Shown here piece after piece: positions 1 through 58,316 of a DNA stretch of 64,000 nucleotides. Position 1 is the stretch's first letter, and each line of letters starts with the position of its first letter. The stretch spans positions 22,980 to 86,979 of the forward strand of contig CANQUF010000001.1 of assembly GCA_947626975.1 (NCBI GenBank), read 5' to 3'. This stretch comes from an uncultured Clostridia bacterium. GTDB taxonomy: Bacteria > Bacillota > Clostridia > TANB77 > CAG-465. A program made the position numbers and the translations under genes. The notes beneath the pieces are model-generated. The model was not told the origin of the DNA, did not search any database, and worked only from the letters and a program-made list of their open reading frames with translations.

Positions 1-786
1 TTTTGTGATTTATTAAAAAGTCTTCCTGAATATAAAAAACTGCTATGGAATTTTCCGAGGAACATATCTGTCTGCGACAACAGATTGTTAATTAACATTA
101 AGTTTCCTCCTTCTTATACGTATGATAAGGAAGTAATTTCATACGATGTTTTAATAGACGAGGATTTTTTAAAGGGATGTATGCAAGATGCTATATATAC
201 GTTACTAGAAAAAACTATAGCTCCATCTCCAAATAGTATTATAAAACTAGCATTAAAAATTTATTGTAAGGCTTTTTCAGTTACCATCATTAATAGTGAT
301 AAATTATTCCTTTGCTTCCTTAAAATTCTAAATGAATTAGAATCTTATAAAAACATTTTAAATAATGTGAGAACCAAAAGTTTAGTGTTTAAAGATAAAA
401 AGTTTTGCATAAAAACAACTTATCCTGGACACTTTGGTATCAATAGTACCTACGAAGAGATACTTTTTGACCCAATTGAAATAAGGTCATGTATAATTGA
501 TTCAATCATTGCGTTAATGCCTGAGGGACATCGTGCTCTAAATTCAGGAAATATAATTTCGCATGCATTAAAGCTTTATACAGGTGTTTATTCATTTACA
601 TTTCCCCAAAATACTGTCCCTGTTCTAGAGAAATTGCGAGATATGGTAAATGAAGAATTTATACCTATATATAAAAAGCTTGGTACACCTATATCTGAGT
701 CTAAGATTAGACAAAAAGCTATTAATGATTATCCAGCAGTTAGACCAAAGGATATAATCGGGTATGCAATTTCAAAAAAATTCTAA
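1..786 (+). CDS. hypothetical protein, 5'-truncated at window edge
   Basis: The frame of the listed 85..786 ORF stays open back to nt 1 with no stop, so the 'start' at 85 (TTG) is probably internal. No recognisable family motif. It is on the opposite strand to the downstream locus. Confidence 0.4.
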   Translation, partial: FCDLLKSLPEYKKLLWNFPRNISVCDNRLLINIKFPPSYTYDKEVISYDVLIDEDFLKGCMQDAIYTLLEKTIAPSPNSIIKLALKIYCKAFSVTIINSDKLFLCFLKILNELESYKNILNNVRTKSLVFKDKKFCIKTTYPGHFGINSTYEEILFDPIEIRSCIIDSIIALMPEGHRALNSGNIISHALKLYTGVYSFTFPQNTVPVLEKLRDMVNEEFIPIYKKLGTPISESKIRQKAINDYPAVRPKDIIGYAISKKF

Positions 787-796
787 ATAACAAAAT

Positions 797-830
797 GGCA
801 CCCTAGAATTTACTAGGGTACCGTTTTTAT
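797..830. terminator. bidirectional rho-independent terminator (hairpin ggcaccctag/ctagggtacc plus T-tract)
   Basis: 10-bp inverted repeat 797-806/813-822 with a 6-nt loop, followed by TTTTT on the plus strand and a U-rich run on the minus strand. It lies between convergent genes. Confidence 0.6.
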
Positions 831-831
831 T

Positions 832-1722
832 TTAATATATAATATTTACTTTTGATTTTCTTAAATAACTAGAAAATTCATCTATACTCATACTTCTATT
901 AGCATAAATTCTTGGAATTTCATATAAATTATGCTTATTAGAATAATATACTCCACCACTCATAGCAAGACCGTATTTATAATTATTTTTTGCAACTTCT
1001 ATTATATTTTTATTATACTTACCTATAGGATAACATATTGTATCTACTTTTATATCATATGTACTTTCCAAATATTTTTTAGAGTCTACTAGCTCTTTTT
1101 GCATCTCATTTAATGAAAGAGATGTAAGTTCACGATGAGTTAAAGTATGAGTTTGAACTGATACAAGGCCACTATCTATCATTTCTTTTATTTGATCACT
1201 AGTTAAATAATTAGGTCCATTAACATAGTTGCATATTATATAGATACTTGCTTTTTGATTATATTTTTTTAGCAATGGAAAAGCATTATTATAAAAATAT
1301 ACAAAGCAGTCATCAAATGTAAGTGCTACTGGTTTAGTATAATTTGATAAGTCCTCAATCTCATTTACAAATACAGTTTGATATCCATTATCAACAATAT
1401 ACTTTAATTGTTCTTCTAAAGTAGATGGTCTTAAAAAATTTTCAACATCTAAATTCTCACCATAATCATCTAAAATAAAATGATACATAAAAATTGGAAG
1501 TGATACGTCTAATTCTTTATATATTTTTTCTTCACCATTTGCAATACTAATATTTTCAATGTTTATATAATTTTTATCTTCTTTAAAAAAATTAAAAGTT
1601 TTTATTGCTATTAAATCTTTATTTTTTACAAAATAAAGAAAAGCTGGAGATAATAATAAAATTAAAATAATAAGAATAAACTTTATTCTATTTTTTACTT
1701 TAATTGTCATATATACCTCCAT
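832..1722 (-). CDS. polysaccharide deacetylase (NodB/CE4 family), N-terminal signal-anchor
   Basis: NodB motifs: LTFDDC, HTLTHRELTSLS and PIFMYHF. There is a single N-terminal TM after a basic stretch, so the catalytic domain is probably extracytoplasmic. It is paralogous to the 9050..9949 product. Confidence 0.75.
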   Translation of the reverse strand: MEVYMTIKVKNRIKFILIILILLLSPAFLYFVKNKDLIAIKTFNFFKEDKNYINIENISIANGEEKIYKELDVSLPIFMYHFILDDYGENLDVENFLRPSTLEEQLKYIVDNGYQTVFVNEIEDLSNYTKPVALTFDDCFVYFYNNAFPLLKKYNQKASIYIICNYVNGPNYLTSDQIKEMIDSGLVSVQTHTLTHRELTSLSLNEMQKELVDSKKYLESTYDIKVDTICYPIGKYNKNIIEVAKNNYKYGLAMSGGVYYSNKHNLYEIPRIYANRSMSIDEFSSYLRKSKVNIIY

Positions 1723-1783: not shown

Positions 1784-3130
1784 TTATTTGTCTTTATCAA
1801 ATATTTTGGCACCTGTTCTCTTCTTAGAACTTAATTCATCTGACTTATTAACTAAATCTTCTTTATATTCTTTTTTATTATTTAATCTTTTTCTAATCTT
1901 AAGATCTTCATCTTTAGTTTTACTATTTACACTATTTTTATTATTTTTTTTGTATAAATATAAGATAAATATAAATTCAATAAGTATTATTGCTAACATT
2001 GCTAATATACCATACTTTGATCTTACTAAATTATATACTTTTCTTAAGAAACTATCATTATCATTTTCACTCTTTAAATAATTAATTTCTTCGTCTTCTA
2101 CTAAACTAGGATCTTTTACAACTTTTATTACGTATTCTTTCGTAGTAGTGCCATCTTCAGATGTTACTTTTACTGTAATAGTATTTTCTCCATCTTGTAA
2201 TCTGTCATTACCAATTATTTCAATATTTACATTTTCATTTTCTCCGAATGCAAGAATTTTTAAATTTTCTATACTTGCACCTACAGTACCGCAATCATAT
2301 TCAAATATTTCCTTTGAAAACTCAGGTGACAATGTAGCATTTTCTACAATCAAATTAAGCAAATATGAATTAGATTTTACCGGGTCAGCTGTTTTTGTAG
2401 CAACAATTGTATAAACTTTTTTTGTTCCATCTTGTGCAGTTACAGTTATAGTAATATTATTATCTCCTGCTTTTAAATCTTTATTACCAGTAATAGTAAC
2501 TTTTGAAGTTGATGCTTCTGGAACTGCTGTAATATTCAATTCACTTATATTTTCACCAATAGTTATAGTATAATTAGTTTTATTTTTATTAAAATTAGGC
2601 GTTAATCCTTCTTGATCTACTTGTAATTTTGATAAATATGCATTATTGTTTTTTACAGATGTATTTGATACTGTATTATTAGTAGTATTAATATTATTAT
2701 TATTAGTATTAGTATTATTTACTTGAGGTGCACTAACAGTTATAGTTTTTGATGCTGTTATAACACCAGTGCCATTAACTTTAGTATCAGTTTTAAAATC
2801 TACTGCTTCTAACATTTTAAATTCAAAGGTGTATGTTCCAACTGAAGTTGGTGTATAAGAATATGTCTTTGAAGCAATACCATTAATAGTGCTGCTATCA
2901 AAATTCCATAATCCTTCTGATTTTATTACTTGACCATTGCAAGTTAATGTTGCTGAGGTATATGCACCAACAGAAGTACCTAAATTAACATTTATATTAA
3001 CACTCTGTCCCAAAGTAATATTATTTGCACTCATACTAGCTGCTCTAATATCTTTAGATATAAAGAAATAAAATAAAATAATAAATACAAATATTATATA
3101 TCTAAACTTACTTTTCATATTTACCTCCAT
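1784..3130 (-). CDS. surface protein with two cadherin-like beta-sandwich domains, type-I membrane anchored
   Basis: Signal peptide, an Ig-like N-terminal domain and an N/T-rich linker. Two repeats of the LSxLxVxxGxLxPxFxxxxxxYxxxV...VTAxDGTxKxYTIxV pattern (cadherin-like beta-sandwich). C-terminal TM (ILAMLAIILIEFIFILYLY) plus a ~60-aa Lys-rich cytoplasmic tail. Confidence 0.6.
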   Translation of the reverse strand: MEVNMKSKFRYIIFVFIILFYFFISKDIRAASMSANNITLGQSVNINVNLGTSVGAYTSATLTCNGQVIKSEGLWNFDSSTINGIASKTYSYTPTSVGTYTFEFKMLEAVDFKTDTKVNGTGVITASKTITVSAPQVNNTNTNNNNINTTNNTVSNTSVKNNNAYLSKLQVDQEGLTPNFNKNKTNYTITIGENISELNITAVPEASTSKVTITGNKDLKAGDNNITITVTAQDGTKKVYTIVATKTADPVKSNSYLLNLIVENATLSPEFSKEIFEYDCGTVGASIENLKILAFGENENVNIEIIGNDRLQDGENTITVKVTSEDGTTTKEYVIKVVKDPSLVEDEEINYLKSENDNDSFLRKVYNLVRSKYGILAMLAIILIEFIFILYLYKKNNKNSVNSKTKDEDLKIRKRLNNKKEYKEDLVNKSDELSSKKRTGAKIFDKDK

Positions 3131-5649
3131 TACTCTTGTACAATTTTATTTATATTCAATATATGTTTTTGTAATTTTTGTAAATCAATCGTTGTTGGTT
3201 CACCACCATCTTTTTTTATATCAGATGATAGTTTTTGTATATTTGATAAAGCTTTTATTTTTAATATAGCTTTCTGCATTATTTGTAAATCAATTGTATT
3301 TATTAACCCTTCTCCATTTATATCACCATAAATAACAACTGAATAACTTTGAATCACATCTTTACTCTCTTTATCAGTAAGTTCAATAGTTGTTCCTGTT
3401 CCAACTAAATCATTATCTAAAATAATCTTGTTATTAATATCTTTTATTACAACTTCATATTTTTCTTTATTATATGTTAGTTTATTTAACAATTCAGAAA
3501 TTTTAGTATTTGGCTCTATTTTACTTATAATATTTTCTTTATCATTAACATTTATTTCTTTGTCAAATGTTAAGAAATCAGCTTCAGATATATCAATAAC
3601 TTTTACTTTAGCAGTTACACTTTTTTCACCATCTTTTGTCTTAAATACAACATCTGTACTACCAGAATTTACACCCTTTATTTTATTATTTTCAATTTTT
3701 ACAATATTTTCATTTTTACTTGTTACACTATACTCTTTATTTGTAGCATCATCTGGTGATATAGTAGGTACTATTGTCAAATACTTTCCTTTAATCATAG
3801 TATAATTTTCTTTAGGTATTGTTATATTTTCAACTTTTGATATAACTGTAACATTACAAGTTGAAGTAAGTCCAGTATCAATAGCTTTAACTGTTATTGT
3901 TGCATTACCTGATTTATTTGCAGTAATCTTTCCATTTTCTACTGATACAATACTTGAATCACTACTAGACCATTCTACATTTTTATTTGTGGCATCCTCT
4001 GGCTCAATTTTATACGTTAATTCTTTATTTTCGCCTTTATTTAAAGTAAGTTCAGTATCATCTAAAGTTATTTTTGTAACTTTTTTTACTACATTAACTT
4101 TACATGTTGCAGTCATTTCATTATCTAGAGATTTTACAGTAATTGTAGCTTCACCTTTTGATTTTGCTGTAAGTTTTCCATTTTCAACACTTACAATATC
4201 ACCATTACTACTAGACCATTCTACATCTTTGTTTGTTGCATTATTTGGTAATATTGTACAAGTAAGATCATATGTATCACCTAAATTCATTTCTAAATTT
4301 GTAGTATTTAAAGATATTCCTGTTACTTTTACATTTGTGTCAACTTCTTTTGTATAGTCTCTAAATACATATCCTTCTATACCGTTATCAAGTCTTACTT
4401 TATCCCATTGTGTATTTAAACTTTTAGCAATTCTTGTCATTTGGTCACCTTCATCAAGTTTTGCTACTATAGAGTATGTTGTTCCTGGACCTGATCTAAT
4501 ATACAATTTTGATGGAGCTACATCATAAGCGGCTATTCTTGTATTATCAGATACATACTCCTCTGAATTATTACCTGGATATGGTGAAAGAGAATCAGGC
4601 ATATTATTAAATACAGGAATATGAAACTCAAATACATTATTTAACATACCCATTTTTTCATATGCTGTATATGTACTATATGATTCATTTGTTGGTGCAA
4701 GAATATTTGTCATATATTGATACGCATAAAGTGCTATTGCATTTCCATATGGATTGTTTACGTCAAATTTTTGAAAGTATGTTGTATCTTGTCCCCACTT
4801 TATCCATTGATTTTTTAAGATATCTGTTCCACCTTTAATAGCACTATCAGGATCAGTCCAATTTTTATTTTTTGCATATTTAAGACCATTAGTAATAGAA
4901 TCTGGTGGAGTTGCACCAATATTAAAATAGTTGTATGGAACTACTCCATCAATAACAGTTGAACCGTTTATTGAACGATTAGAAGTAATATTTCCACCAG
5001 TTTCTTGTTTTATTCTTGATGCAATATATACACCACTAACGTTATATTGTTTTGCAGCATCTAGAATAATACTAGAATAAGTCTTATTCATATTAATCAT
5101 TGATCCTTGTTTTTGATATTCTGATCTATTATACATTGATGTACCATATAATACTTTTTCAATAGAATCTATAGTATCCATAGATTTACTATAGCTTAAA
5201 GTTTGAAATTGAAATACTTCTTTTTCATTTATATGGTTTCTTGGATCTAACATATATTTTACAGCTGGTATTGAAGCAATAACCCAACCACCATCATCAA
5301 TCTGATAATCTTGTCCATCTTTTTTCCATGCAGGATCATAACTTGATGGGACAGCACTAATTCCAGTATTTACTTCATAGCTTTCATGACTTACTGCCTC
5401 ATTCCAATCAAGACCTGTATATACTGCTTTAAATACCCAATTTGGATGAGCTTGCTTTAAGGCATTTATGTATGGTACGTAACTTGCTGGAAAATCATCT
5501 CTCATTTGTGATATAGGAAGTCCAGTCGTAATTTTTGCTTGTACTTGATTTATATTTGTAAATAATGGCATTATACTACATGTGATAATAGAAATTATTA
5601 CAAATAATATTGATATTTTCTTTATTTTTCCTTTTTTCTCATACATCAC
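3130..5649 (-). CDS. secreted multidomain glycan/peptidoglycan hydrolase (GH73-like catalytic region, SH3b, 3-4 Big_2 Ig-like domains, C-terminal dockerin-like module)
   Basis: Signal peptide. The N-terminal ~420 aa are paralogous to the N-terminus of the 1254-aa protein, with a QETGG...YNYFNIGA...GQDTTYFQKFDV pattern resembling glucosaminidase (GH73) motifs. The SH3b-like segment is SKLYIRSGPGTTYSIVAKL...GYVF. Big_2-like repeats follow (VTGISLN..., KITLDDTELTL..., ITIPKENYTMI...). The last ~65 aa look like a dockerin. Confidence 0.55.
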   Translation of the reverse strand: MMYEKKGKIKKISILFVIISIITCSIMPLFTNINQVQAKITTGLPISQMRDDFPASYVPYINALKQAHPNWVFKAVYTGLDWNEAVSHESYEVNTGISAVPSSYDPAWKKDGQDYQIDDGGWVIASIPAVKYMLDPRNHINEKEVFQFQTLSYSKSMDTIDSIEKVLYGTSMYNRSEYQKQGSMINMNKTYSSIILDAAKQYNVSGVYIASRIKQETGGNITSNRSINGSTVIDGVVPYNYFNIGATPPDSITNGLKYAKNKNWTDPDSAIKGGTDILKNQWIKWGQDTTYFQKFDVNNPYGNAIALYAYQYMTNILAPTNESYSTYTAYEKMGMLNNVFEFHIPVFNNMPDSLSPYPGNNSEEYVSDNTRIAAYDVAPSKLYIRSGPGTTYSIVAKLDEGDQMTRIAKSLNTQWDKVRLDNGIEGYVFRDYTKEVDTNVKVTGISLNTTNLEMNLGDTYDLTCTILPNNATNKDVEWSSSNGDIVSVENGKLTAKSKGEATITVKSLDNEMTATCKVNVVKKVTKITLDDTELTLNKGENKELTYKIEPEDATNKNVEWSSSDSSIVSVENGKITANKSGNATITVKAIDTGLTSTCNVTVISKVENITIPKENYTMIKGKYLTIVPTISPDDATNKEYSVTSKNENIVKIENNKIKGVNSGSTDVVFKTKDGEKSVTAKVKVIDISEADFLTFDKEINVNDKENIISKIEPNTKISELLNKLTYNKEKYEVVIKDINNKIILDNDLVGTGTTIELTDKESKDVIQSYSVVIYGDINGEGLINTIDLQIMQKAILKIKALSNIQKLSSDIKKDGGEPTTIDLQKLQKHILNINKIVQE
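3133..3340 (-). other. dockerin-like C-terminal module (two Ca-loop + helix segments)
   Basis: The first segment, GDINGEGLINTIDLQIMQKAIL, fits the type-I dockerin pattern (D-x-N-x-[DE]-G-x-I-N-x-x-D then LxxLxKxIL). The second, DIKKDGGEPTTIDLQKLQKHIL, has a conserved helix but a degenerate loop. Confidence 0.45.
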
Positions 5650-6413
5650 TTATTATCTCCTTTATTTAAAATTTGTATATAAGTTTTAACCTCTATAAAA
5701 TTATATCATAAAAGAAAAAAATGCAAAAGTATTTTGTAGAAATTTGTATACAGAATATATTATGTAAAAATGATATAGAGAAAAATTTTCAAGATAATTC
5801 TTGAATACTTTTTCCTTGTTAATTTCAATATGAAAATAGTTCTTCTACAATTTATTTAATATGTTAGTATCTTCGATATATTTTTTCCTTTGCCTTTTGT
5901 TGCTTTTAATAATGCATATTTATCTGTGCTATATGTTTTAACACATTATTTATGCTATAACTTCTGGAAGTAGTTGCATCAGTATGTATAAGGTACTATT
6001 TAGTATTTTCTTTTCTATATTTTCAATTAATAGTACAGATTTGTTTTTAATTCTATAATGAAATTTTCTATATTTCCATTAGATATATTTAGCTTGTTTT
6101 TTGATATCGATTTTATTAAATATGATAGTCTGTCAATTGCAACTAACCCTTCTATATTTAGAAAAGAGAATAAAGCTTTTATATCAGATCCATATTGTAC
6201 ATCTGTCTTAAATTCTTTTGGTATATTATATTTTCCATTTTCATCTTGATAAAATCTATATTCTTTAGCACTACATCTATTTTTATATCCAATACATATT
6301 TAGATATATATTTATCTGATACTTACCTACATTAATTACTTCATGAGTAACTTCTTATTATTTATTTGGTTTAATATCAGATGATGGAGGTAAGAGACGA
6401 ATTATCACTATTA

Positions 6414-10735: not shown

Positions 10736-11518
10736 CTATTTCTTTTTATTTAATTTATACACTAAATATATGATTATAATTATTAGAATTCCAACAATTC
10801 CAATAAACACTCTAATATCAATAGTTTTTCTACTTTTATCAGTATTCATATTTGAATCCTCTTGTGATGTTTCAACTACATCACTAATTGCTTTATCTAT
10901 TGTATCTTTTTTTAAATTTAGTGTATATTCTTTTGCGGTACTTCCATCTTCAGAATTTACTTTTATTTTTATAACATTATTACCATCTTTTAAATTTTCA
11001 TTTCCAGATATTTCTACAGTAGCTCCTTCTTGTCTTGGAGCAGCGAAAATTGAAACATTATTTATCTTATTTGGTACACTACCTAAATCATAGTTTAAGG
11101 TTTCAGGTACAAATGGTGGCACTAACTCTAAGTTTTCAACAATTAAAGTTTGCAAATATGAATCTGATTTATCTTTATCTGATGCTTTAGTTACAGTTAT
11201 AGTATAAACATTTTCTTTACCATTTTTATCAGTTACTTCAATTAATACTGTATTATCACCAGATTTTAAATTATCATTTCCTGATACTTTCACTGTAGAA
11301 TCAGTAGAACTTGCTACTGCATTTACATCAATAGAATTTATAGTATCTTTTACAAACAAAGAATAACTTGTTTGCGATGGAGTGAAATTTGGGGATAAAC
11401 CTTCTTGGTTTACCTCCAATTTCATTAATTCAGTATTTGTAGCTGCCATACATACACAAATGTTAGTAAGAAAAAAAACACTAAAAAAGAACACAATTTT
11501 CTTAAAATATTTTGACAT
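10736..11518 (-). CDS. surface protein with two cadherin-like beta-sandwich domains, C-terminal TM anchor
   Basis: Signal peptide, two cadherin-like beta-sandwich repeats (LMKLEVNQEGLSPNF...YTITVTK and LQTLIVENLELVPPF...YTLNLKK), and a C-terminal TM ending in KKK. It is a shorter paralog of the 1784..3130 product. Confidence 0.6.
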   Translation of the reverse strand: MSKYFKKIVFFFSVFFLTNICVCMAATNTELMKLEVNQEGLSPNFTPSQTSYSLFVKDTINSIDVNAVASSTDSTVKVSGNDNLKSGDNTVLIEVTDKNGKENVYTITVTKASDKDKSDSYLQTLIVENLELVPPFVPETLNYDLGSVPNKINNVSIFAAPRQEGATVEISGNENLKDGNNVIKIKVNSEDGSTAKEYTLNLKKDTIDKAISDVVETSQEDSNMNTDKSRKTIDIRVFIGIVGILIIIIIYLVYKLNKKK

Positions 11519-11531
11519 ATTTTCCTCCTAT

Positions 11532-14500
11532 CTATTTTACTAATATATATATCATAGATTTAATATTATTATTTTCATCTTTTATAAATAATGTTGCATC
11601 TCCTGAACCTTTTGGAGTTATTATTCCATTCTCATCAACTGTAAACACTGAAGTATTATTTGTTTCATAATGTACATTAATATATTTACTATCAGCTAAA
11701 TTTATGAAGTCTGATACTTTATATGTATTTTCTAAACTTAAAGTTCTATGATCAGTATATTCTACATTCAATTTTAGTTGAGCATATACAAGATTTGAAC
11801 TATCATTAGAAACTACAGTTATAATTGTTTCACCTAAGCTTTTTGCGACTATATTTCCATCTGAATTTACATCAGCAATATTGCTATCTGCTACTTTAAA
11901 AGTTACATCCTTATATTTTGCATTATCAGGCAAAATTTTATAATTTATTTTACATGAATCACCAGATTTTAAGGTAAGTTCTTTTTTATCTAATACAATT
12001 TCTGTTACTTTTACATAATCTATAACTTTTATATAAACCATTGCTAAATTATTGCCATTAATATCTTGCACAAATACAGTGGCATCTCCTTTTCCAGTTG
12101 GTGTTAATTTCCCATCTTGTGATATCTTAGCTACAGATTCATTATTTATTTTTAATATCGCATCAGAATATTTCTTATTATTAACATCTAATACATTCCA
12201 AATTGACTTAGGAGTTACCATATCTGTTTCAATAGAAGCAGTATATTGCAAGTTAACATTACATGTTACATCATTAAAAGTTTTATCCTCTGAAGAAATA
12301 ATTATTTTAGAATTTCCTAAAAATTTAGCATATATATTTCCATCATCATCAATTGTAAATAGATCTTCATTTGCACTTTTATATTTTAATTTTTTATACT
12401 TAGCATTATCAGGAACTACAGTAGCATCTAATTTGTCACTTTCACCTACTTTTACATTAAATTCATCTTTATTTAATTCTATTTTTTCTACTTTAATATA
12501 TTCCTTTACATTTACATATATCATACTCTTAGTATTACCTGATGAATCAATTATAAATAGCGTACAATCTCCTAATGAACTATTGACTGTTACTAATTTA
12601 TTTTTATTATCAATAGATAAAAGAGTATTATTATTTGTACTAAGAGTACAATTTCCATATTTTTCTGTATCAAAGAAATATGAAAAAGATAATTTATCTT
12701 CAAAATATACTGTTTTACTGTCAGTATATCCAACTTTAATATAACATAATTCAATAATATTTCCATTTTTATCTTCTACAAATACACTTGCATCTCCTAA
12801 AAATTTTCCTGTTACATTTCCTGAACTATCTACATTAATTACATCATTATTGTTAGTATAATATTTTATGCCAATTTTATCAATATTTATTTTCTCTCCT
12901 ACTTTTATTGATTTTGAATCCGTATAGTGTACTCCCACATAGTATATTCCAATTAAATTACCATTTTTATCTTCTACAAATACACTTGCATCTCCTAAAA
13001 ATTTTCCTGTTACATTTCCTGAATTATCTACATTAATTACACTATTATTATTTGTATAATATCTTGTACCAATTTTACCAATATTTATTGTCTCTCCTAC
13101 CTTTATTGATTTTGAATTTGTATAGTGTACTCCCACATAGTATAGCCCAATTAAATTACCATTTCCATCTTCTACAAATACACTTGCATCTCCTAAAAAT
13201 TTTCCTGTTATATTTCCTGAACTATCTATATTAATTACACTATTATTGTTAGTATAATATTTTATTCCAGTTTTACCAATATTTATTGTCTCTCCTACTT
13301 TTATTGATTTTGAATCTGTATAGTGTACTCCCACATAGTATAGCCCAATTAAATTACCATTTCCATCTTCTACAAATACACTTGCATCTCCTAAAAATTT
13401 CCCTGTTATATTTCCTAAATTATCTAAATTAATTACACTATTATTGTTGGTATAATATTTTTTACCATTACCATCAATATGTATCTTTTCTCCTATTTTT
13501 AATGAAAATTGATCTGTGTATTTTACTGCAACATAAAACATAGCTAATCTTCTTCCATCTAATGAATCTATAAATACAGTAGCGTCTCCTAAGAATTTTC
13601 CCTTTACATTTCCTTTTGAATCCACATATAAAACTTCATTATTATTAGTATATATCTTACAATTTCCATATTTTTCTAAATCTATATTAATAGTTTCGCC
13701 AACTTTAACAGAAAAAGAATCTGTATATCCAACTGCAACATAGCAAGTATCTTGTATTGATAAATCATCATCACTCATTGCAAATACAGTTGCATCTCCT
13801 ATATTTCTTCCTGTTACAATACCATTTTTATCTACTGTTACAACATCAGAGTTGTTTGTAGTATATATAACATCTTTAAATCTTGCATTATTTGGAGATA
13901 TTGTCGCATTAAGTTGTTCACTTTGTCCAGATTTTATTTTTATTTTTTCTTTATTTAATGTCAGTCCTGTTACTCTTGTATATCCAGTATATTCCTTAAC
14001 ATAGCTAGAGAAAACATAACCTTCAGTTCCATCACTTAGTTTTACCTTATCCCATTGAATATTTATACCTTTTTTTATTCTAGTCATTATTGTTCTATTC
14101 TCTTGGCCTTCAAAATCTTCTATAATTTTTGTAACTACTGCAGAATTAGAATTTGGTTCAGCTCTGATTATAAAGGTATCTTTTACTCCAAAATCAGATG
14201 TATCATCAAGATATACTTTTGTATGATCATCTTCAAATTTTGCTTCTTCACCAACTTGAACCGGTGTAGGAGTCATATTATTAAATACAGGTATATGAAA
14301 TACAAATGATGAATCTAACATGTTACATGCCTTATATGAAGAATATATTCGACTTGATTCACTAGACGGAGCTAATATATTAGTCATATATTGCATCCAA
14401 TACAAAGATTGACCTCCTGTAATATCATTTACATCCCACTTTTCAAAATATACTGTATCTTGTCCCCATTTTACATAATCGTTATATATCTTTTTAGCAG

Positions 14501-15296
14501 CTCCTTCAATTGATGATGATGGATGTGTCCAACCTTCATCACGAGCTCGTAAAAGTGCATTAACAACTATAGATCTACCACCTGCTGTATTAGCTCCAAT
14601 ATTGAAAAAGTTATATAAGCCTTCATATCCAGGATATGACCCATTTATGCAATTATTATTTATTATGTCACCACTATTTTCTTGCCTTATTCTTGATGCT
14701 AAATGTACAGGGCTAACATTATATTTTTTACCATTTTCAGTTATTATATCAGAATATGACTTTTTTCCCGTTTCTCCATCAAGAAATAGCCAATTACCAT
14801 TATTTTTATATCTAACTCCGTAATATGAGTCACCCATAGGAGTTCCGTATAAAACTTTTTTTACCACATCTGATGTATCTACATTATTATTACTTGTTAC
14901 TGCAAATTGGAATATTTTTTCCTCATTTAAAAAATTTCTTGGATCTAAGCAATAACCAACTGCAGATTCTGAAGCATTAACCCATCCAGGTTCTATATTT
15001 TCTTCACTCTTTTTCCATTCTGATGAATAACTAGATGGTACCAAACTTCTTCTGTCAACAGTTTCATTATCTACTGTATTTTGCCAATCTAAATCAGTAT
15101 ATACAGCAACAAACTTCCAGTTGGGATGAATACTATGCAAATTTTGCAAATAAGTTTGATAGCTTTCAGGAAAAGCATTAATTCCTTCTACATATTGAGA
15201 TTTTGCATAAATAACATTTTTACCTAAAAATATTATAGCGATGAATATAAATAGTTTTATTATATTAATTTTACATTTTTTTATTTTATTTATCAT
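11532..15296 (-). CDS. secreted multidomain glycan/peptidoglycan hydrolase (GH73-like region, SH3b, many Big_2-like repeats)
   Basis: The N-terminal ~430 aa are paralogous to the 839-aa protein. The SH3b-like segment is GYVFSSY. After that come about eight ~65-aa Big_2-like repeats, the central four nearly identical, and further Big_2 domains to the C-terminus. Confidence 0.55.
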   Translation of the reverse strand: MINKIKKCKINIIKLFIFIAIIFLGKNVIYAKSQYVEGINAFPESYQTYLQNLHSIHPNWKFVAVYTDLDWQNTVDNETVDRRSLVPSSYSSEWKKSEENIEPGWVNASESAVGYCLDPRNFLNEEKIFQFAVTSNNNVDTSDVVKKVLYGTPMGDSYYGVRYKNNGNWLFLDGETGKKSYSDIITENGKKYNVSPVHLASRIRQENSGDIINNNCINGSYPGYEGLYNFFNIGANTAGGRSIVVNALLRARDEGWTHPSSSIEGAAKKIYNDYVKWGQDTVYFEKWDVNDITGGQSLYWMQYMTNILAPSSESSRIYSSYKACNMLDSSFVFHIPVFNNMTPTPVQVGEEAKFEDDHTKVYLDDTSDFGVKDTFIIRAEPNSNSAVVTKIIEDFEGQENRTIMTRIKKGINIQWDKVKLSDGTEGYVFSSYVKEYTGYTRVTGLTLNKEKIKIKSGQSEQLNATISPNNARFKDVIYTTNNSDVVTVDKNGIVTGRNIGDATVFAMSDDDLSIQDTCYVAVGYTDSFSVKVGETINIDLEKYGNCKIYTNNNEVLYVDSKGNVKGKFLGDATVFIDSLDGRRLAMFYVAVKYTDQFSLKIGEKIHIDGNGKKYYTNNNSVINLDNLGNITGKFLGDASVFVEDGNGNLIGLYYVGVHYTDSKSIKVGETINIGKTGIKYYTNNNSVINIDSSGNITGKFLGDASVFVEDGNGNLIGLYYVGVHYTNSKSIKVGETINIGKIGTRYYTNNNSVINVDNSGNVTGKFLGDASVFVEDKNGNLIGIYYVGVHYTDSKSIKVGEKINIDKIGIKYYTNNNDVINVDSSGNVTGKFLGDASVFVEDKNGNIIELCYIKVGYTDSKTVYFEDKLSFSYFFDTEKYGNCTLSTNNNTLLSIDNKNKLVTVNSSLGDCTLFIIDSSGNTKSMIYVNVKEYIKVEKIELNKDEFNVKVGESDKLDATVVPDNAKYKKLKYKSANEDLFTIDDDGNIYAKFLGNSKIIISSEDKTFNDVTCNVNLQYTASIETDMVTPKSIWNVLDVNNKKYSDAILKINNESVAKISQDGKLTPTGKGDATVFVQDINGNNLAMVYIKVIDYVKVTEIVLDKKELTLKSGDSCKINYKILPDNAKYKDVTFKVADSNIADVNSDGNIVAKSLGETIITVVSNDSSNLVYAQLKLNVEYTDHRTLSLENTYKVSDFINLADSKYINVHYETNNTSVFTVDENGIITPKGSGDATLFIKDENNNIKSMIYILVK
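12600..13750 (-). repeat. tandem ~195-bp intragenic repeats (encode ~65-aa Big_2-like units), core copies near-identical
   Basis: The DNA unit '...atcttctacaaatacacttgcatctcctaaaaattttcctgtta[ct]atttcctga...' recurs at about 12.78, 12.97, 13.17 and 13.36 kb with only a few mismatches. More diverged copies flank the core. Confidence 0.7.
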
Positions 15297-15408: not shown

Positions 15409-17577
15409 CTAATACGAAACCTTAAAAATCAATAAACCATATTCATCATAAAGTTTTTCAAATTTTATATTATCATTATTATATTTTTCTAAATTTTTGC
15501 TAGATAAAACATATTTAACATTAATATCGTCTAATTTGTCAGGATTAATATTTATCTTTATAGAATCAGGATATAATAATTCTAAATTTGTATCAATATC
15601 ATCAATATTGACACTTACATGTGCATATCTATTATAGATTTTTCTTATTTCTTCTTTTTGACTATCCTCACCTAATAAAGTTTTATATAATTCATAATTA
15701 GGATAATAATTTGTAGAATTTATTACTCTTGCACCATTTGCAACAACGTAATTTGGAACTGTAAAATTTAAATTATCAACTAGCCATAAGGCGTCTTTAT
15801 TTTCATTTACAATTTTTTGTATTTCTAAAGATACAGGTTTGTTATATATTACATTTATTCCTTTTATGATAGGATTTACTATAGCACCAGATAATATTGC
15901 AACAGACGATAGTATTACCATAAAATATTTCTTATATTTTGGTTTATTTAAATTAAACATAAGATAAAACAAAATAAATACTATTGTGCCTGATATAAAA
16001 CCTGAAACTGGTCCTAAATAATTAGATGGTCCATACTTAACAGCAAAAATTAAACATATAGTTGCAAAAACTCCAGAGAGTATAAAGCTAACTTTTTCTT
16101 TTAATAATTTGGTATCATCTTTAAAATTATTAATTAAATATATAATTAACAATATTTGTATATATCCTAAAGCTATTGCTGCCCTATGTGAAGGTATCAT
16201 ATATAATAATGTTATCTTTGCAAATATTTTATTAGTAGGGATAAAACACCATATAGAAAGTAAGATACTAACTAGTAATAACGGTATTAAAAAACTTAAT
16301 ATCTTTTTAAAATCTTTGCTTTTTCTTTTTCTATATAAATAGAGTAAAGCAATAATAATCGGCATAGGATATAAAGATAGCATATTTGAATTTTCACAAG
16401 GGTTTATCATGTCCTTAAGCGGTACAAAAATCGAATATACATATGAAAACATGTTATCTTGAGAATTTCCACCAATTTCAAATCTCTCTCCTGGATAGTC
16501 AGCATTAAGCGTTGCTGTAATAGCCTCATTTGAGATGATAAAAAATCTAGCAACGATTAAAACAACTAAAATGATTGTTATAATTATAGATAATACATCA
16601 ATTTTATTAATATGAAAATCTTTTCTATTTTTTAAAATAATCCATATTAGAATTGCAAGATAAACATATGCAAATGAAATCATCCATGCTGGATATAGTA
16701 TAAATATATAACAAATAGCACAAAATCCCACACCTAATATGTATAGACTTCTAAAATACCATTTTTTTTCAAGCATAAATTTATCTATTAAAACTAGCGC
16801 CAATTGTCCAAATATTAGTATATCTACTATAAAATTAGAATACCACCATTGCACAGCTGGAGAAAAAGTTATTACAAGCATTCCGAATAATGATACAAGC
16901 TTGTTTTTCTTAGTAAGTAACATACAAAATTCAAATGATATTAACATTAATGCTACTAATCTACCATACCACCAAAAAGATAATCCTACTTCATTACCAA
17001 ATAGAAGATACCCGATATTAAAAGGTTTCCCTATAATTAGAATATCTTTAACAGGAGCATTTATTACTGTAAACATGTCTGTTTTTGTTCCTCTAATATT
17101 CATATTAAAATATGGATAATTTTCATTTTCTTGTAAATTTTGAGAAAATATTAAAGGAGAATTTACGGCCCATTCATCTGAACGTATTGTCCTTGCTTTT
17201 CCTAAAATAGGAGTATACGTACTATCATTAGCCTCACTTTGTACAAAAAAATTATATGATGTAATTGATGAGCCTGAATATTTCATTATCATAGCAAAAA
17301 AAAGGAATAATAAAGCTAAAATAAATCTTTTTTTATATATCCACTGATACATATCATTAAGCCTAAAAATTAAATGTAATCCGGTAAATAATATAACTCC
17401 TGCAATTATAATAATTCTGTCTATACTAAAAGCTCCACTTTTTTTATAAATCACAAAAAACTCCATAAGAAAAGATAGTAATACGGCAACTAAAAACAAT
17501 ATAATTATTTTGATAAGTTTAAAATTATCTTTATTAAAAAAATTCAAAACTTTATTTCTTATCTTCTTTTTTGTCAT
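15409..17577 (-). CDS. polytopic membrane protein, candidate GT-C glycosyltransferase / oligosaccharyltransferase (YfhO- or WsaB-like)
   Basis: At least 12 predicted TM helices over ~520 aa, followed by a ~200-aa soluble C-terminal domain. The genomic context is GT2 plus a small membrane protein. No motif-level assignment was possible. Confidence 0.4.
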   Translation of the reverse strand: MTKKKIRNKVLNFFNKDNFKLIKIIILFLVAVLLSFLMEFFVIYKKSGAFSIDRIIIIAGVILFTGLHLIFRLNDMYQWIYKKRFILALLFLFFAMIMKYSGSSITSYNFFVQSEANDSTYTPILGKARTIRSDEWAVNSPLIFSQNLQENENYPYFNMNIRGTKTDMFTVINAPVKDILIIGKPFNIGYLLFGNEVGLSFWWYGRLVALMLISFEFCMLLTKKNKLVSLFGMLVITFSPAVQWWYSNFIVDILIFGQLALVLIDKFMLEKKWYFRSLYILGVGFCAICYIFILYPAWMISFAYVYLAILIWIILKNRKDFHINKIDVLSIIITIILVVLIVARFFIISNEAITATLNADYPGERFEIGGNSQDNMFSYVYSIFVPLKDMINPCENSNMLSLYPMPIIIALLYLYRKRKSKDFKKILSFLIPLLLVSILLSIWCFIPTNKIFAKITLLYMIPSHRAAIALGYIQILLIIYLINNFKDDTKLLKEKVSFILSGVFATICLIFAVKYGPSNYLGPVSGFISGTIVFILFYLMFNLNKPKYKKYFMVILSSVAILSGAIVNPIIKGINVIYNKPVSLEIQKIVNENKDALWLVDNLNFTVPNYVVANGARVINSTNYYPNYELYKTLLGEDSQKEEIRKIYNRYAHVSVNIDDIDTNLELLYPDSIKININPDKLDDINVKYVLSSKNLEKYNNDNIKFEKLYDEYGLLIFKVSY

Positions 17578-47907: not shown

Positions 47908-48813
47908 ATGAGTATATTTAGAGATAATTTTATGTGCCAAAATGATTGTAATTCTAATTTCGATAACTGTTGTCAAAATAGTTGTTGCCATCATGAAACT
48001 TGTTGCTTAATTCCAGGTCCAACTGGACCTACAGGTCCATCTGCTGTTTCAGTAAATGTTAATTCAACTACTACTGGAGCACCTGGTAGTGCTGCATCAG
48101 TAACAAATGTAGGTACAGATCAAAACGTATTATTAGATTTTGTAATACCTGCAGGATTTAATGGAGCAACTGGTGCAACTGGTGCAACTGGCGCTACTGG
48201 TGCTACTGGTGCTACCGGTCCTCAAGGTATTCAAGGACCTCAGGGTATTCAAGGTGCTACAGGCGCTACTGGTGCTACTGGACCTCAAGGTATTCAAGGA
48301 CCTCAAGGTATTCAAGGTGCTACTGGTGCTACAGGCGCTACCGGTGCTACTGGGGCTACAGGTGAAACTGGAGCAACTGGCGCTACTGGACCTAGTGTAG
48401 GACTTACTGCTTATGGTGGACTATATAGTACTACAACACAAAGTTTTACAACAACTCAAGGTACTCCTACTGTTATAACTTTAGGTACACAAATGCCTAA
48501 TTTAAATGTTGGTACAGCTACTGCAAATACTTTAACTATTAATGAAGCTGGTGATTATGAAATATCATACACCGTACTTGCAGATCTTGATAACGCAGGT
48601 GATTTAACTATTGCAGTTCAAAATGCTGGTGCTGATATTCCTGGAACATCACAAACTATTGATATGAATGGAAATGAAGATGACTTATTTAATAAAAGTA
48701 TAATTACGACATTAACAGCAGGAAGTACTATCACTTTAGTTTTAACATCAACAACAGATTCGACTGATGGTAGCATAAATGAGGCATATTTAATTATAAA
48801 AAAATTAGATTAA
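47908..48813 (+). CDS. collagen-like exosporium protein (BclA-like) with Cys-rich N-terminus
   Basis: N-terminus [24 protein letters not shown]. About 40 GxT/GPQ/GIQ triplets. The ~140-aa C-terminal beta domain resembles the BclA C-terminal (C1q-like) domain. RBS AAAGGGGA. Confidence 0.8.
48163..48395 (+). repeat. perfect/near-perfect 9-nt (GCWACTGGT)n collagen triplet repeat with internal 54-nt duplication
   Basis: ggtgcaactggtgcaactggcgctactggtgct... encodes (GAT)n; the [21 protein letters not shown] block occurs twice. Confidence 0.8.
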
Positions 48814-52522: not shown

Positions 52523-54221
52523 TTAATTAATTGCTTTTTTAAAATCTTGAATTATAAGCTGTATAGTTTTTGGTGTATTATACGTATTAACATCAACATT
52601 ACATATTACATCTATTTTATCACCTATTTTTATTTCGTCTCTTCTATTTCCTTGTGAAAAAGCTAAAGCTTCTAATAAATATTTATCATCTCTTAAAGTT
52701 AACTTTAAATGTTTTTCATCTTTTATAGTTCTTATAGCTTGTACTCTAAGTGATTTATACAAAAATAAAGGTTCTTTGTTTGACTGACCATATGGCTTTA
52801 ACCTATGCAAATCTTTTAGAATTGATATATTTAAATTACGATAAGTAATAGCTAAATCTATATCTATTATCTGTTCCTGTAATCCTTTTAATTTATATGT
52901 AGATTCTCTTTCAAAAGCCTCTTTAAATTCTTCTATTTTATTTATATCAATACTAAGTCCGTGCTGCCAGTTCATGTCCTCCAAATTGCAATAGACAATC
53001 TTTACATTTTGTTAAAGTATCATATAACGAAAATCCTGGTTGGCATCTACCAGATCCACGTATTATTCCATTTTCTTTTGTTAGTAATATTACTGGTTTA
53101 TAATATATATTAACAAGTCTTGAAGCTACTATTCCAATTACACCATTATGCCAATTTTCATTATATAATACTATACTATTTTTTTTATCTATATTTTCTT
53201 TTACTATAATATTTGTAGCCTCATCAAATATGTTTTTTTCTACTTGTTGTCTTAAGGTATTTAACTTATCTAATTTTATAGCAAGATTATTTGCTTCTAT
53301 TTTATTATTTTCTAATAATAATTTTACTGCAACTTTTGCATTTCCCATTCTACCACATGCATTAATTCTTGGTGCCATTCCAAAGGATACCATAACACTA
53401 TCTATTTCTTTAAAATTCGTTATATCTAATAACGCTTTCAATCCAATATTTTTAGTATTTTTTAATTTTAATAATCCATACTTAGATATGATTCTGTTTT
53501 CATCTACTAATGGAACTATATCTGATATAGTTCCAATTGCTACAATATCTATATATTGTAAATAACTTTCCTTATCTAATTTAAATTCTTCTGCAAGAGC
53601 TTCAATACATTTAAAAGCTACTCCAACACCAGCCAACATTTTAAATTCATAATTATCATCTTTTTGTTTTGGATTAATAATTGAAATGGCATCTGGCAAT
53701 ATTTCAGAACATTCATGATGATCTGTAATACACATATCTAAACCTATTTTTTTTGCATAATTAGTTTCTTCCACAGCAGTTATTCCACAATCTACAGTAA
53801 TTACTAAACTTGCATTTTGTCTTTTTATTTCATCTAATGCTTTAATATTTATACCATAGCCTTCAACCAATCTATCTGGTAAATAGTACATTACATCTGC
53901 ACCTAAATTTGTTAAAAATTTATACATAATAGTTATACTAGTTATACCATCTACATCATAATCGCCATAGATACATATTTTTTCATTATTACTTATTGCA
54001 GTTTTTACTCTATTTACAAATTTTTTCATATCTTTCATTATATATGGATCTCTTAAGTCATCAATATTACCATTTAGAAAATTATCTATATCTTTAATAT
54101 CTCTTGATATAATTAATTTTGCTAATATTTCAGATATATTATACTTATTTTGAATATCTTTTACTTGATTTTCATCATAAACCTTTACATTCCATTTTTT
54201 TTGCATAATTTCTCCTAACAT
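52523..54221 (-). pseudogene. recJ: single-stranded-DNA-specific exonuclease RecJ, interrupted by a +1 frameshift
   Basis: The DHH domain (422-aa ORF) ends ...FGGHELAART*. The DHHA1/C-terminal continuation (...HGLSIDINKIEEF...) is in the next frame, overlapping by 32 nt. The expected GGHELAAGLSI reading requires deleting one nucleotide near 52959-52965 (gcagcaCgga). Confidence 0.7.
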
Positions 54222-57010: not shown

Positions 57011-57574
57011 ATGTATACGTATATGAACCAGAAAAAGGAAATAATAAAACAAGAAAAGGAAATATCTGAACTTTTAAGTAATGTAAGTGACCAAAAATTG
57101 CTATACGATTTTACAAAAGATATTAATACATATTCGTCAAATATACGTGAAAAAGCACTACAAAAAATAACTGATGACAAATATCTATACAAACTAGCTG
57201 TTTTGACGCGTAATTTGTATTTAATGTTTCATTTAAATATAGTACATTATACTACAGGCTTTACTATGCATGAAATTGTTAAACAAATTACTAATAACAA
57301 ATATCTATACAAAATAGCTAAATCAAAGCTTGATACTTTACCTTTGATTGAACAAAACATATCTTTATATTTTATAGCAACTAATTTAAAAAATCAAAAG
57401 TATCTATCAAAATTTATTTGTATTAAAGATGTATCTCCAACAGAAGATTATTTCGATATAGCTCTAAATAAGATTACTGATATTTCTATTTTAAACAAAG
57501 CTTTATCTCATACACGTAATACAATAAAAAAACTGAAAATTAAAATAAGAATTAAAGAATTAAAACATACTTAA
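57011..57574 (+). CDS. small alpha-helical repeat protein (HEAT-like LYDFxK / KITDxxxLxKxA repeats), paralog 1
   Basis: Repeated KLLYDFTK / KITDDKYLYKLA / NNKYLYKIAK motifs. The C-terminal 60 aa are ~70% identical to paralog 2. RBS AAAGGAG. Confidence 0.5.
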   Translation: MYTYMNQKKEIIKQEKEISELLSNVSDQKLLYDFTKDINTYSSNIREKALQKITDDKYLYKLAVLTRNLYLMFHLNIVHYTTGFTMHEIVKQITNNKYLYKIAKSKLDTLPLIEQNISLYFIATNLKNQKYLSKFICIKDVSPTEDYFDIALNKITDISILNKALSHTRNTIKKLKIKIRIKELKHT

Positions 57575-57812: not shown

Positions 57813-58316
57813 GTGGCAAAAATGTCTATATCTAAAAAAGAACAAGAAATTTTACTAAGAGTTTTAATTGAAAAGGGGGATGAAAATTTATTGTATGATT
57901 TTGCAAAAAATCATACATACAATAAGACTTTAAGAAAATTAGCTATTTCTTATATCACTAATCCTAAATTACTTTATAATATGCTTATAAACAATCAATG
58001 CAAATTTTGCACAGAGTATATTGTTGAACGTATTTCTGATCAGAGATGTTTGTATAAATTAGCTAATAACATTTATCTTTATAACCCTATCATTGATGAA
58101 AAAACAGTATTACAATCTATAGCAAAAACATTAAAAGATGAAAAATACCTATCTAAATTTATATGTGTTCAATCTGTTTATCCAGAAAAAGATTATTTTG
58201 ATTTAGCATTGGGGAAAATTACTGACATTTCTCTTTTAAAAAAATGTCTATCTCATACATTTAATGTAACTAAACGTAAAAAAATAAAAAGAAGAATTAG
58301 AGAATTGAAGAATTAA
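57813..58316 (+). CDS. small alpha-helical repeat protein (HEAT-like), paralog 2
   Basis: NLLYDFAKNH, NPKLLYNML, CLYKLANN and KYLSKFICVQSVYPEKDYFDLALGKITDISLLKK motifs. RBS AAAGGAG. Confidence 0.5.
   Translation: MAKMSISKKEQEILLRVLIEKGDENLLYDFAKNHTYNKTLRKLAISYITNPKLLYNMLINNQCKFCTEYIVERISDQRCLYKLANNIYLYNPIIDEKTVLQSIAKTLKDEKYLSKFICVQSVYPEKDYFDLALGKITDISLLKKCLSHTFNVTKRKKIKRRIRELKN

Follow-up and report, generated by a model that had tools for sequence, protein, structure and literature searches.

The 64-kb stretch of DNA analyzed here (64,000 nucleotides of contig CANQUF010000001.1 from an uncultured Clostridia bacterium of the CAG-465 lineage; hereafter the window) carries on its minus strand a gene for a secreted peptidoglycan hydrolase of 839 amino acids (3130..5649, from the open reading frame (ORF) list and translation) which ends in a dockerin, directly followed by a gene for a membrane anchor (ORF of 448 amino acids, 1784..3130, ORF list) and by a gene for a CE4 polysaccharide deacetylase (832..1722, minus strand, Pfam PF01522). 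Comparison with relatives suggests that the dockerin and the N-terminal domain of the neighboring anchor (N-domain) have repeatedly been swapped together, and that the two genes are a system which clips an enzyme to the cell's own surface. A promoter-like site upstream of the hydrolase (5727..5700, TTTGCA-16-TATAAT with TG, promoter scan) and a terminator-like hairpin after the deacetylase gene (822..797, terminator scan) suggest that the three genes make up one transcription unit, of which the deacetylase gene is predicted to be the last. The junction of the first two genes reads GAG TAA tGGAGGtaaat ATG, with the anchor ATG 11 nt past the stop codon of the hydrolase. Because a strong GGAGG ribosome-binding site precedes it, this ATG at 3118 is the most likely start of the anchor (444 amino acids), and it agrees with the database protein P0121. 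The database counterpart of the hydrolase, P0001 (838 amino acids), starts one codon later than the 839-aa ORF and is otherwise identical.

The hydrolase, with all of its features on the minus strand, starts with an apparent signal peptide (residues 1-38, 5536..5649) which we read from the translation as KKGKIKK, a hydrophobic core and VQA followed by K. Behind it lie the catalytic region (residues ~45-350, 4600..5517), an SH3_3 domain (residues 381-433, 4351..4509; PF08239, 36.4 bits) which is likely a cell-wall-binding module, three to four Big_2 Ig-like domains (residues ~440-690, 3580..4332; PF02368, E 1.6e-32 over three stretches) and an X-module-like beta module of ~80 amino acids without a Pfam match (3340..3579). 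The latter directly abuts the dockerin and is kept in 62 of the 63 dockerin-positive ORFs (jackhmmer). The catalytic region was assigned by NCBIfam and PDB matches. It aligns with SagB (6fxp, 6u0o), AtlE (4pi7) and Atl (6fxo) with E values between 6e-15 and 9e-12. For the NCBIfam SagB model the E value is 3.4e-16 and the score lies far below the equivalog cutoff, so that the assignment holds at the family level only. A Pfam scan of the protein, listed to E <= 1, gave no glucosaminidase family. The motif KQETGG (within ASRIKQETGG) is aligned to LLETGA of SagB, its Q and E do not vary among 17 aligned homologs, and the Glu is presumably the GH73 catalytic residue. By these sequence criteria the N-terminal enzyme is a GH73-type N-acetylglucosaminidase with a conserved catalytic Glu. 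The protein has more than 1,900 database homologs, nearly all of them metagenomic and without an informative name, and a C-terminal PF00404 (Dockerin_1) is retained in most of 120 homologs among the matches listed.

The tail of the protein is a dockerin module of two repeats (3133..3339, minus strand; Pfam match 3157..3330), delimited by Pfam and PDB alignment. An earlier reading of this DNA from its letters alone (the sequence-only reading) had placed a dockerin-like module on a putative wall hydrolase at 3133..3340, which is right to one base, and had proposed a Dockerin_1 search as a check; both the dockerin and the wall hydrolase, for which the SagB, AtlE and Atl matches speak, have held up. 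PF00404 covers residues 774-831 with profile positions 1-57 of 57, scoring 34.9 bits on the whole protein and 41.1 bits (E 2e-10) on the tail alone, above the curated cutoff of 22.9. In phmmer comparisons with the PDB the tail aligns end to end with the type-I dockerin of C. thermocellum Xyn10B (2ccl, E 4.9e-7; 1ohz, E 1.8e-6), and both entries are cohesin-dockerin complexes containing that dockerin. The tail is also the sole dockerin match in the six-frame translation of the window (E 1.7e-20). A type-I dockerin consists of two tandem segments with a 12-residue Ca2+ loop (ligands at positions 1, 3, 5, 9 and 12) followed by a helix. The two peptides which the sequence-only reading had quoted, GDINGEGLINTIDLQIMQKAIL and DIKKDGGEPTTIDLQKLQKHIL, are both contained in the 839-aa ORF. 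Repeat 1 (DINGEGLINTID) has every canonical ligand in place (D1, N3, E5, N9, D12). Repeat 2 (DIKKDGGEPTTID), rightly described as the more degenerate copy, carries a Lys at position 3, one inserted residue and a Pro, and retains the helix and only D1, D5 and the final D of the ligands. The asymmetry between an intact first and a degenerate second repeat is also present in relatives with the subtype-1 module. From these alignments we conclude that the tail is a genuine full-length type-I-like dockerin. Metagenomic hydrolase homologs 64-73% identical overall (P0002-P0120) carry at least six distinct types of dockerin tail, for example IDVVDLLLLKRQIT, VDSMDMYNTIQHIL, IDSLDILYLRKYLL and ITSMDYTLIKNHIM; compared with the enzyme body, the dockerin is thus hypervariable.

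The neighbor is, as had been recognized before, a membrane-anchored cadherin-like protein. Its order on the minus strand is a signal peptide, the N-domain of ~110 amino acids (residues ~31-140 of the 448-aa ORF, 2711..3040; located with a hidden Markov model (HMM) of Pfam-positive relatives), an Asn-rich linker (Asn/Thr-rich in translation, 2651..2710), two Cadherin-like beta-sandwich domains which we propose to be a stalk (2099..2650; PF12733, E 5.1e-17 over two stretches), a C-terminal transmembrane (TM) helix with a conserved mid-membrane Glu (IILIEFIFILYLY; 1943..2011, from a hydropathy scan and a motif comparison over 63 anchors) and a Lys-rich, predicted cytoplasmic tail (1787..1942, translation). 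The TM helix is unusually conserved in the loci of the Clostridia clade (L001-L059), where its consensus is about K.N.LLV.MY….VEF.Q.VYLY and a Glu or Gln lies mid-membrane. No such motif is present in the 260-aa anchors of dockerin-less paralogs described below, in the anchors of the Bacilli clade or in L053. Such conservation suggests an intramembrane partner or oligomerization.

With the 17-homolog alignment as query, 67 loci were retrieved from species-representative genomes. They come from uncultured gut Clostridia (e.g. Clostridium sp. CAG:465, CAG:921 and Ca. Merdicola) and from a few metagenome-assembled genomes (MAGs) which belong to the Bacilli clade, are labelled Tenericutes or are named Firmicutes CAG:460. 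In essentially all loci with downstream sequence a dockerin hydrolase is followed by a protein with a signal peptide, an N-domain, two Cadherin-like domains and a TM helix. The gap between the two genes is ~10-35 bp and the anchors measure 375-592 amino acids in essentially all complete loci, with one or a few small ORFs placed between the genes in five loci. The synteny of the pair persists down to 30-34% hydrolase identity, in the MAGs of the Bacilli clade. One subclade (L014-L016, L020, L058 and L069; at ~12.2-12.7 kb in locus coordinates) has a gene for ~125-160 amino acids between hydrolase and anchor, with an HD_4 domain in L069. No other cohesin was present within 10 kb on either side of the pair in any locus, and within the same distance nearly all loci are free of other dockerin or cohesin genes. 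Extra dockerin ORFs of a non-GH73 kind lie near the pair in L051 (20098..23676, plus strand, 1192 amino acids) and L046 (8910..9356, plus strand, a fragment by an N-masked stretch), hence some anchors may have more than one client. Tandem complete hydrolase/anchor pairs are found in L049 (1668..8908) and L045 (6227..13437). Both pairs of L045 are of one class, and the two of L049 differ in dockerin class (DY and DL type) as well as in N-domain subtype, as expected for orthogonal pairs within one cell. The CE4 deacetylase was considered as a third conserved component and rejected, being downstream in only 8 of 49 loci.

The window also holds a paralogous pair from which both modules are absent (10736..15296, minus strand; Pfam, alignments and a six-frame HMM scan). 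It comprises a GH73-SH3-Big_2 hydrolase of 1254 amino acids without a dockerin (11532..15296), 41% identical to the 839-aa protein over the first ~520 residues, and a Cadherin-like TM anchor of 260 amino acids without an N-domain (10736..11518), which begins directly with the Cadherin-like domains. A dockerin-less hydrolase accompanied by an anchor lacking the domain also occurs in L051. The C-terminal half of the 1254-aa hydrolase is built of about four near-identical repeats of ~47 amino acids (KFLGDASVFVEDGNGNLIGLYYVGVHYTDSKSIKVGE) and degenerate Big_2-like units.

Pfam Cohesin (PF00963) recognizes the N-domains of several relatives, with 30.0 bits (E 7e-7) in L061, 24.0 in L021 and 22.3 in L005 at a cutoff of 24.1. 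A profile of the N-domains, window sequence included, found 30 database proteins, 26 of which have a precomputed PF00963 match and three also PF12733. Against the PDB the top six matches of this profile were all cohesins (C. perfringens NagJ and B. cellulosolvens ScaA), at marginal E values of 1.4e-3 to 3.5e-3. The AlphaFold2 (AF2) model of one family member, P0150, has a predicted local distance difference test score (pLDDT) above 90 in the domain, and its best eight Foldseek matches are cohesins, including 2w1n (1.6e-7), 2jh2 (6.5e-7) and the OlpC cohesin 4dh2 (4e-6). Judged by Pfam and by predicted fold, the relatives of the window N-domain are cohesins. A link from them to the window copy comes from an HMM of the Pfam-positive subtypes 1-3 (window and L042 excluded). 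It returned the window N-domain at E 3.2e-9 as the sole match in 382 six-frame segments (second-best segment E > 1). With hhalign, subtype 6, to which the window copy belongs, against its nearest subtype, 1, gave 97.1% over 105 columns and subtype 1 against subtype 2 gave 97.5%. The sequence-only reading had stated that the window contains no cohesin. This stands for standard HMMs, as Pfam finds no Cohesin and no second Dockerin in window ORFs of at least 120 amino acids, but not in substance, since the adjacent N-domain is by its profile links a probable divergent member of the cohesin family. The same reading had offered the adjacent beta-sandwich protein as a possible partner of the dockerin; sequence comparisons favor this, although the candidate receptor is its N-terminal domain and not the Cadherin-like domains.

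Coupling of the two modules was examined in 53 complete pairs, each divided into GH73, X-module, dockerin, N-domain, Cadherin repeats and C-terminal tail, with one identity matrix per segment. Spearman correlations are high between GH73 and the Cadherin repeats (0.70) and between dockerin and N-domain (0.61), and low between the dockerin and GH73 (0.17) or the Cadherin repeats (0.16). In a partial Mantel test with GH73 and Cadherin repeats controlled, dockerin and N-domain remain correlated at r = 0.78 (p < 5e-4, 0 of 2,000 permutations), compared with r = 0.10 for dockerin and Cadherin repeats with GH73 alone controlled. The Cadherin-like repeats are accordingly disfavored as the dockerin receptor: they track the phylogeny of the hydrolase and the species, and they are also present in the anchor of the dockerin-less paralog. 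Eight N-domain subtypes map onto dockerin subtypes, and one and the same matched combination can be found with hydrolases of different clades. The GH73 clade of the window, delimited at 60% identity or more, contains four such combinations. Mismatched pairs were not found (0 of 53), despite at least eight subtype changes within hydrolase clades. In both repeats of the dockerin the subtype of the neighbor is tracked by loop position 11 and by helix positions 13, 17 and 18, with within-subtype entropies of 0.98, 0.00, 0.30 and 0.11 bits, respectively. D1, G4, G6, I8 and D12 are near-invariant, and the linker between the repeats is free to vary even within subtypes. We take positions 10/11 and 17/18 to be the classic cohesin-contact positions of type-I dockerins.

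The pair in the window is itself a clear chimera in which both modules have been replaced together as one cassette. Compared with L001 it is 83% identical in GH73 and 82% in the Cadherin repeats, and only 34% in the dockerin and 21% in the N-domain. Compared with L042 the relation is inverted, with 47% and 49% for GH73 and Cadherin repeats and 78% and 77% for dockerin and N-domain. Sliding-window identity at the protein and DNA level delimits the exchanged cassette to 2716..3300 (minus strand), that is, the dockerin, the spacer between the genes, the signal peptide and the cohesin-like domain. These ~600 bp are L042-like, and both flanks are L001-like. The switch points fall at hydrolase residues ~765-775, where the dockerin starts, and at anchor residues ~135-150, inside the linker where the N-domain ends. 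As the L042-like tract runs uninterrupted through the signal-peptide codons, a single recombination event is all that the swap in the window needs.

From these results we consider it probable that the locus is a two-component surface-tethering module for an autolysin, in which the dockerin would dock on the cohesin-like tip of the neighboring protein. Both proteins would be exported by Sec. The anchor would be a type-I membrane protein fixed by its C-terminal TM helix, with the cohesin-like tip membrane-distal and held off by the linker and the two Cadherin-like domains. The X-dockerin tail of the hydrolase may then bind this tip; we infer both the binding and its Ca2+ dependence. The SH3_3 and Big_2 domains could reach into the wall while the GH73 domain cuts glycan strands, so that the hydrolase would be kept on the envelope of its producer at a set distance from the membrane, trimming or separating peptidoglycan. 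The anchor would in effect act as a monovalent anchoring scaffoldin with a single client, and dockerin and cohesin as a matched specificity cassette exchanged as a unit between lineages. A self-directed, housekeeping use of this assembly appears favored over an offensive one because of the envelope-biogenesis neighborhoods here and in relatives.

The offensive use deserves consideration, as the same assembly could serve as a contact weapon which displays GH73 against the walls of competitors, with the diversity of cassettes resulting from kin discrimination or an arms race. Bensoussan et al. 2016/17 (PMC6487960) interpret as possible weapons the dockerins which rumen metagenomes show on putative lysozymes and on a D-Ala-D-Ala carboxypeptidase, and the idea of a "lyticome" is voiced by Vermassen et al. 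2019 (PMC6403190). The high diversity of dockerin tails among hydrolases at least 64% identical and the placement of the enzyme at the membrane-distal end of a stalk would both fit such a role. On the other hand, no immunity gene is evident, the surroundings are those of envelope biogenesis (rhamnose-polysaccharide genes, penicillin-binding protein (PBP) 2 and MreBCD here, GlmS and a class A PBP in relatives), the pair is near-universal and single-copy in these lineages, and a stalk of two small domains may not clear the wall of the producer. We regard the weapon as an unlikely alternative to the tethering of the cell's own autolysin. A more speculative extension of the tethering model, which we consider unlikely, is that the cassette is a polymorphic lock-and-key which keeps the autolysin private to the producing line, and that the Glu of the TM helix couples the hydrolase to membrane-embedded wall-synthesis machinery. 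If this were so, related strains could not capture the hydrolase, nor could the hydrolase act on related gut strains, and it would amount to an unrecognized, widespread way of positioning as well as regulating a peptidoglycan hydrolase in uncultured gut Clostridia.

Another explanation is that the N-domain is a generic Ig-like spacer, the dockerin binding a conventional cohesin encoded elsewhere or having no dedicated partner, and the co-variation being a by-product of adjacency within one recombination tract. The following observations support it or weigh against docking on the neighbor. The window N-domain has no match to Pfam Cohesin even at E <= 10, and with ~110 amino acids it is short compared with the 139 positions of that model. 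Its AF2 model has a pLDDT of 73, derives from a shallow and partly misregistered multiple sequence alignment and shows seven strands, where the cohesin fold is a nine-stranded jelly-roll beta-sandwich; the top 50 Foldseek matches of the model are CARDB or generic Ig-like folds with no cohesin among them. A profile of subtypes 6 and 1 only is not significant against the PDB (E 0.18-0.31), which makes the cohesin assignment of the window copy a transitive one. Taken alone, the window N-domain resembles PKD/Big_3_5 repeat proteins through summed weak stretches: an exhaustive representative search with it as query returned only itself and giant PKD/Big_3_5/Ig-repeat proteins, and a word-indexed homolog search gave no match. 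We rejected these giants as the family of the N-domain, as their scores are sums of 9-22 weak stretches. Furthermore, dockerin and N-domain lie side by side in the DNA and the swapped tract is unbroken, hence linkage alone yields much of the co-variation, and the mutual-information values are inflated by shared ancestry. The second dockerin repeat is degenerate, and the cohesin scan covers 64 kb of the source genome, so another cohesin elsewhere is possible; Peer and colleagues reportedly described, in 2009, many genomes which have dockerins but no recognizable cohesin.

Linkage does not seem to be the whole story. The absence of mismatches among 53 pairs despite at least eight subtype changes within hydrolase clades, the breakpoints on module edges, the joint loss of dockerin and N-domain in the paralogous pair and the pattern of dockerin variation, which follows the neighbor's subtype at the presumed cohesin-contact positions, all argue for more than a by-product. 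Relatives in the same position of the same operon are cohesins by Pfam and fold, the HMM ties the window copy to them with E 3e-9, and no other cohesin lies within 10 kb of the pair in any locus. The window N-domain is not a canonical cohesin by Pfam or fold search, but by the profile comparisons it is likely a trimmed and diverged member of the cohesin family, and the generic spacer is in our opinion improbable. Finally, a non-docking tail that merely binds Ca2+ as a stabilizer or binds cell-wall polysaccharide is suggested by the loss of canonical ligands in repeat 2, by the position of the gene in a wall-polysaccharide locus and by the EF-hand-like Ca sites present in other lysins, yet it is highly improbable given the full-length Dockerin_1 match, the alignment to solved dockerins from cohesin complexes and the variation at putative recognition positions tracking the neighbor's subtype, which neither a glycan-binding nor a purely structural role predicts.

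The window as a whole, with a GC content of ~25% and nearly all genes on the minus strand, is a cell-envelope locus. It encodes rmlABCD-type genes, a Wzm/Wzt ABC exporter, many GT2/GT4 glycosyltransferases and DUF7657/DUF7654, as well as PBP2 and MreBCD, and also spore germination genes, RelA and a threonyl-tRNA synthetase. The protein with DUF7657 and DUF7654 (722 amino acids, 15409..17577, minus strand) is encoded amid the glycosyltransferase genes of the rhamnose-polysaccharide cluster. The few plus-strand genes include one (47908..48813) for a BclA-like protein that combines collagen triple-helix repeats with a BclA C-terminal domain, of the exosporium-filament type, in a region where local GC reaches 0.31. 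RecJ is apparently encoded in two overlapping ORFs (52523..54221, minus strand; DHH/DHHA1 in 52953..54221 and RecJ_OB in 52523..52984), which could be due to a frameshift, a sequencing error or programmed slippage. Three plus-strand ORFs of 167-233 amino acids have no Pfam match (85..786, 57011..57574 and 57813..58316); the first of them has a TTG start and lies just past the terminator of the hydrolase operon. An Rfam scan of the 64-kb window gave no match.

Cohesin-dockerin pairs are familiar above all from cellulosomes, which they glue together. In the present locus they probably take their minimal form, with one cohesin and one dockerin in adjacent genes, as a module for anchoring an autolysin. 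The problem which such a module would address is how a potentially suicidal wall-cutting enzyme is kept at a defined site on the cell's own envelope. The module is near-universal in large lineages of uncultured low-GC gut Clostridia (relatives of CAG:465, CAG:921 and Ca. Merdicola) and occurs in some MAGs of the Bacilli clade, and the pairing is invisible to pipelines because routine annotation shows only "Ig-like/Cadherin-like" proteins. The subtypes are a natural set of candidate orthogonal binding pairs, at least eight in number, for studying the evolution of cohesin-dockerin specificity and possible compact parts for surface display (~110 and ~65 amino acids), and with two small recombinant domains autolysin control in Gram-positives becomes testable.

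A cellulosome or amylosome has a multi-cohesin scaffoldin and several polysaccharide-degrading enzymes with dockerins. The locus is not of this kind, as in the window there is one cohesin-like domain and one dockerin, and the latter sits on a peptidoglycan hydrolase. Cohesin-dockerin pairs are also established outside cellulosomes and plant-cell-wall degradation, and a close parallel is found in C. perfringens (GH84C/NagJ cohesin and NagH-type dockerin; 2jh2, 2o4e, 2ozn, 2w1n), to which the sequence-only reading had already pointed. It was a fitting comparison, as the NagJ/GH84C cohesins are the closest solved cohesins, being the top profile and fold matches for the N-domain family. The C. perfringens modules link secreted enzymes and toxins to one another, whereas here a single cohesin would sit on a TM-anchored Cadherin-like stalk next to its single peptidoglycan-hydrolase client. 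Anchoring scaffoldins (OlpC/SdbA of C. thermocellum, ScaE of R. flavefaciens and Sca of R. bromii) likewise are cell-bound cohesins which capture a secreted dockerin enzyme, and the OlpC cohesin 4dh2 is among the top three fold matches for the N-domain family (P0150 model). The arrangement described here differs from them in being monovalent with one client, in having no carbohydrate-binding modules or plant-polysaccharide enzymes, in anchoring by a TM helix instead of S-layer homology domains or sortase, in its shorter cohesin (~110 amino acids), and in being bicistronic with a specificity cassette swapped as a unit.

A report of 2026 (PMC13463774) describes cohesins so diverged that HMMs miss them, and also TM-anchored scaffoldins, the latter predicted in R. 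difficilis. A dockerin is likewise fused to a predicted peptidoglycan-cutting enzyme in cellulosome producers of rumen and gut (PMC6487960, PMC6403190); the rumen putative lysozymes are presumed to join multi-enzyme scaffoldins, and the accessible parts of these papers describe no neighboring cohesin anchor, GH73 architecture or co-varying cassette. In the full-text literature, with many subscription papers beyond reach, we found no description of a dedicated bicistronic hydrolase-anchor module, of a monovalent TM/Cadherin-like scaffold, of a short cryptic cohesin or of matched specificity cassettes being exchanged as units.

The GH73 enzyme SagB of S. aureus (6fxp, 6u0o) is among the closest solved catalytic domains to the hydrolase. 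Together with a partner membrane protein, SpdC, SagB forms a membrane-tethered complex, and this sets the position of the active site with respect to the membrane. SagB itself carries an N-terminal TM helix, and SpdC is polytopic and CAAX-like. The pair described here is of a different build, with an apparently cleavable signal peptide on the hydrolase and a single-pass beta-sandwich protein as the candidate partner, so the resemblance is functional only. By analogy, SagB-SpdC may be seen as the nearest functional analogue of the hydrolase/anchor pair.

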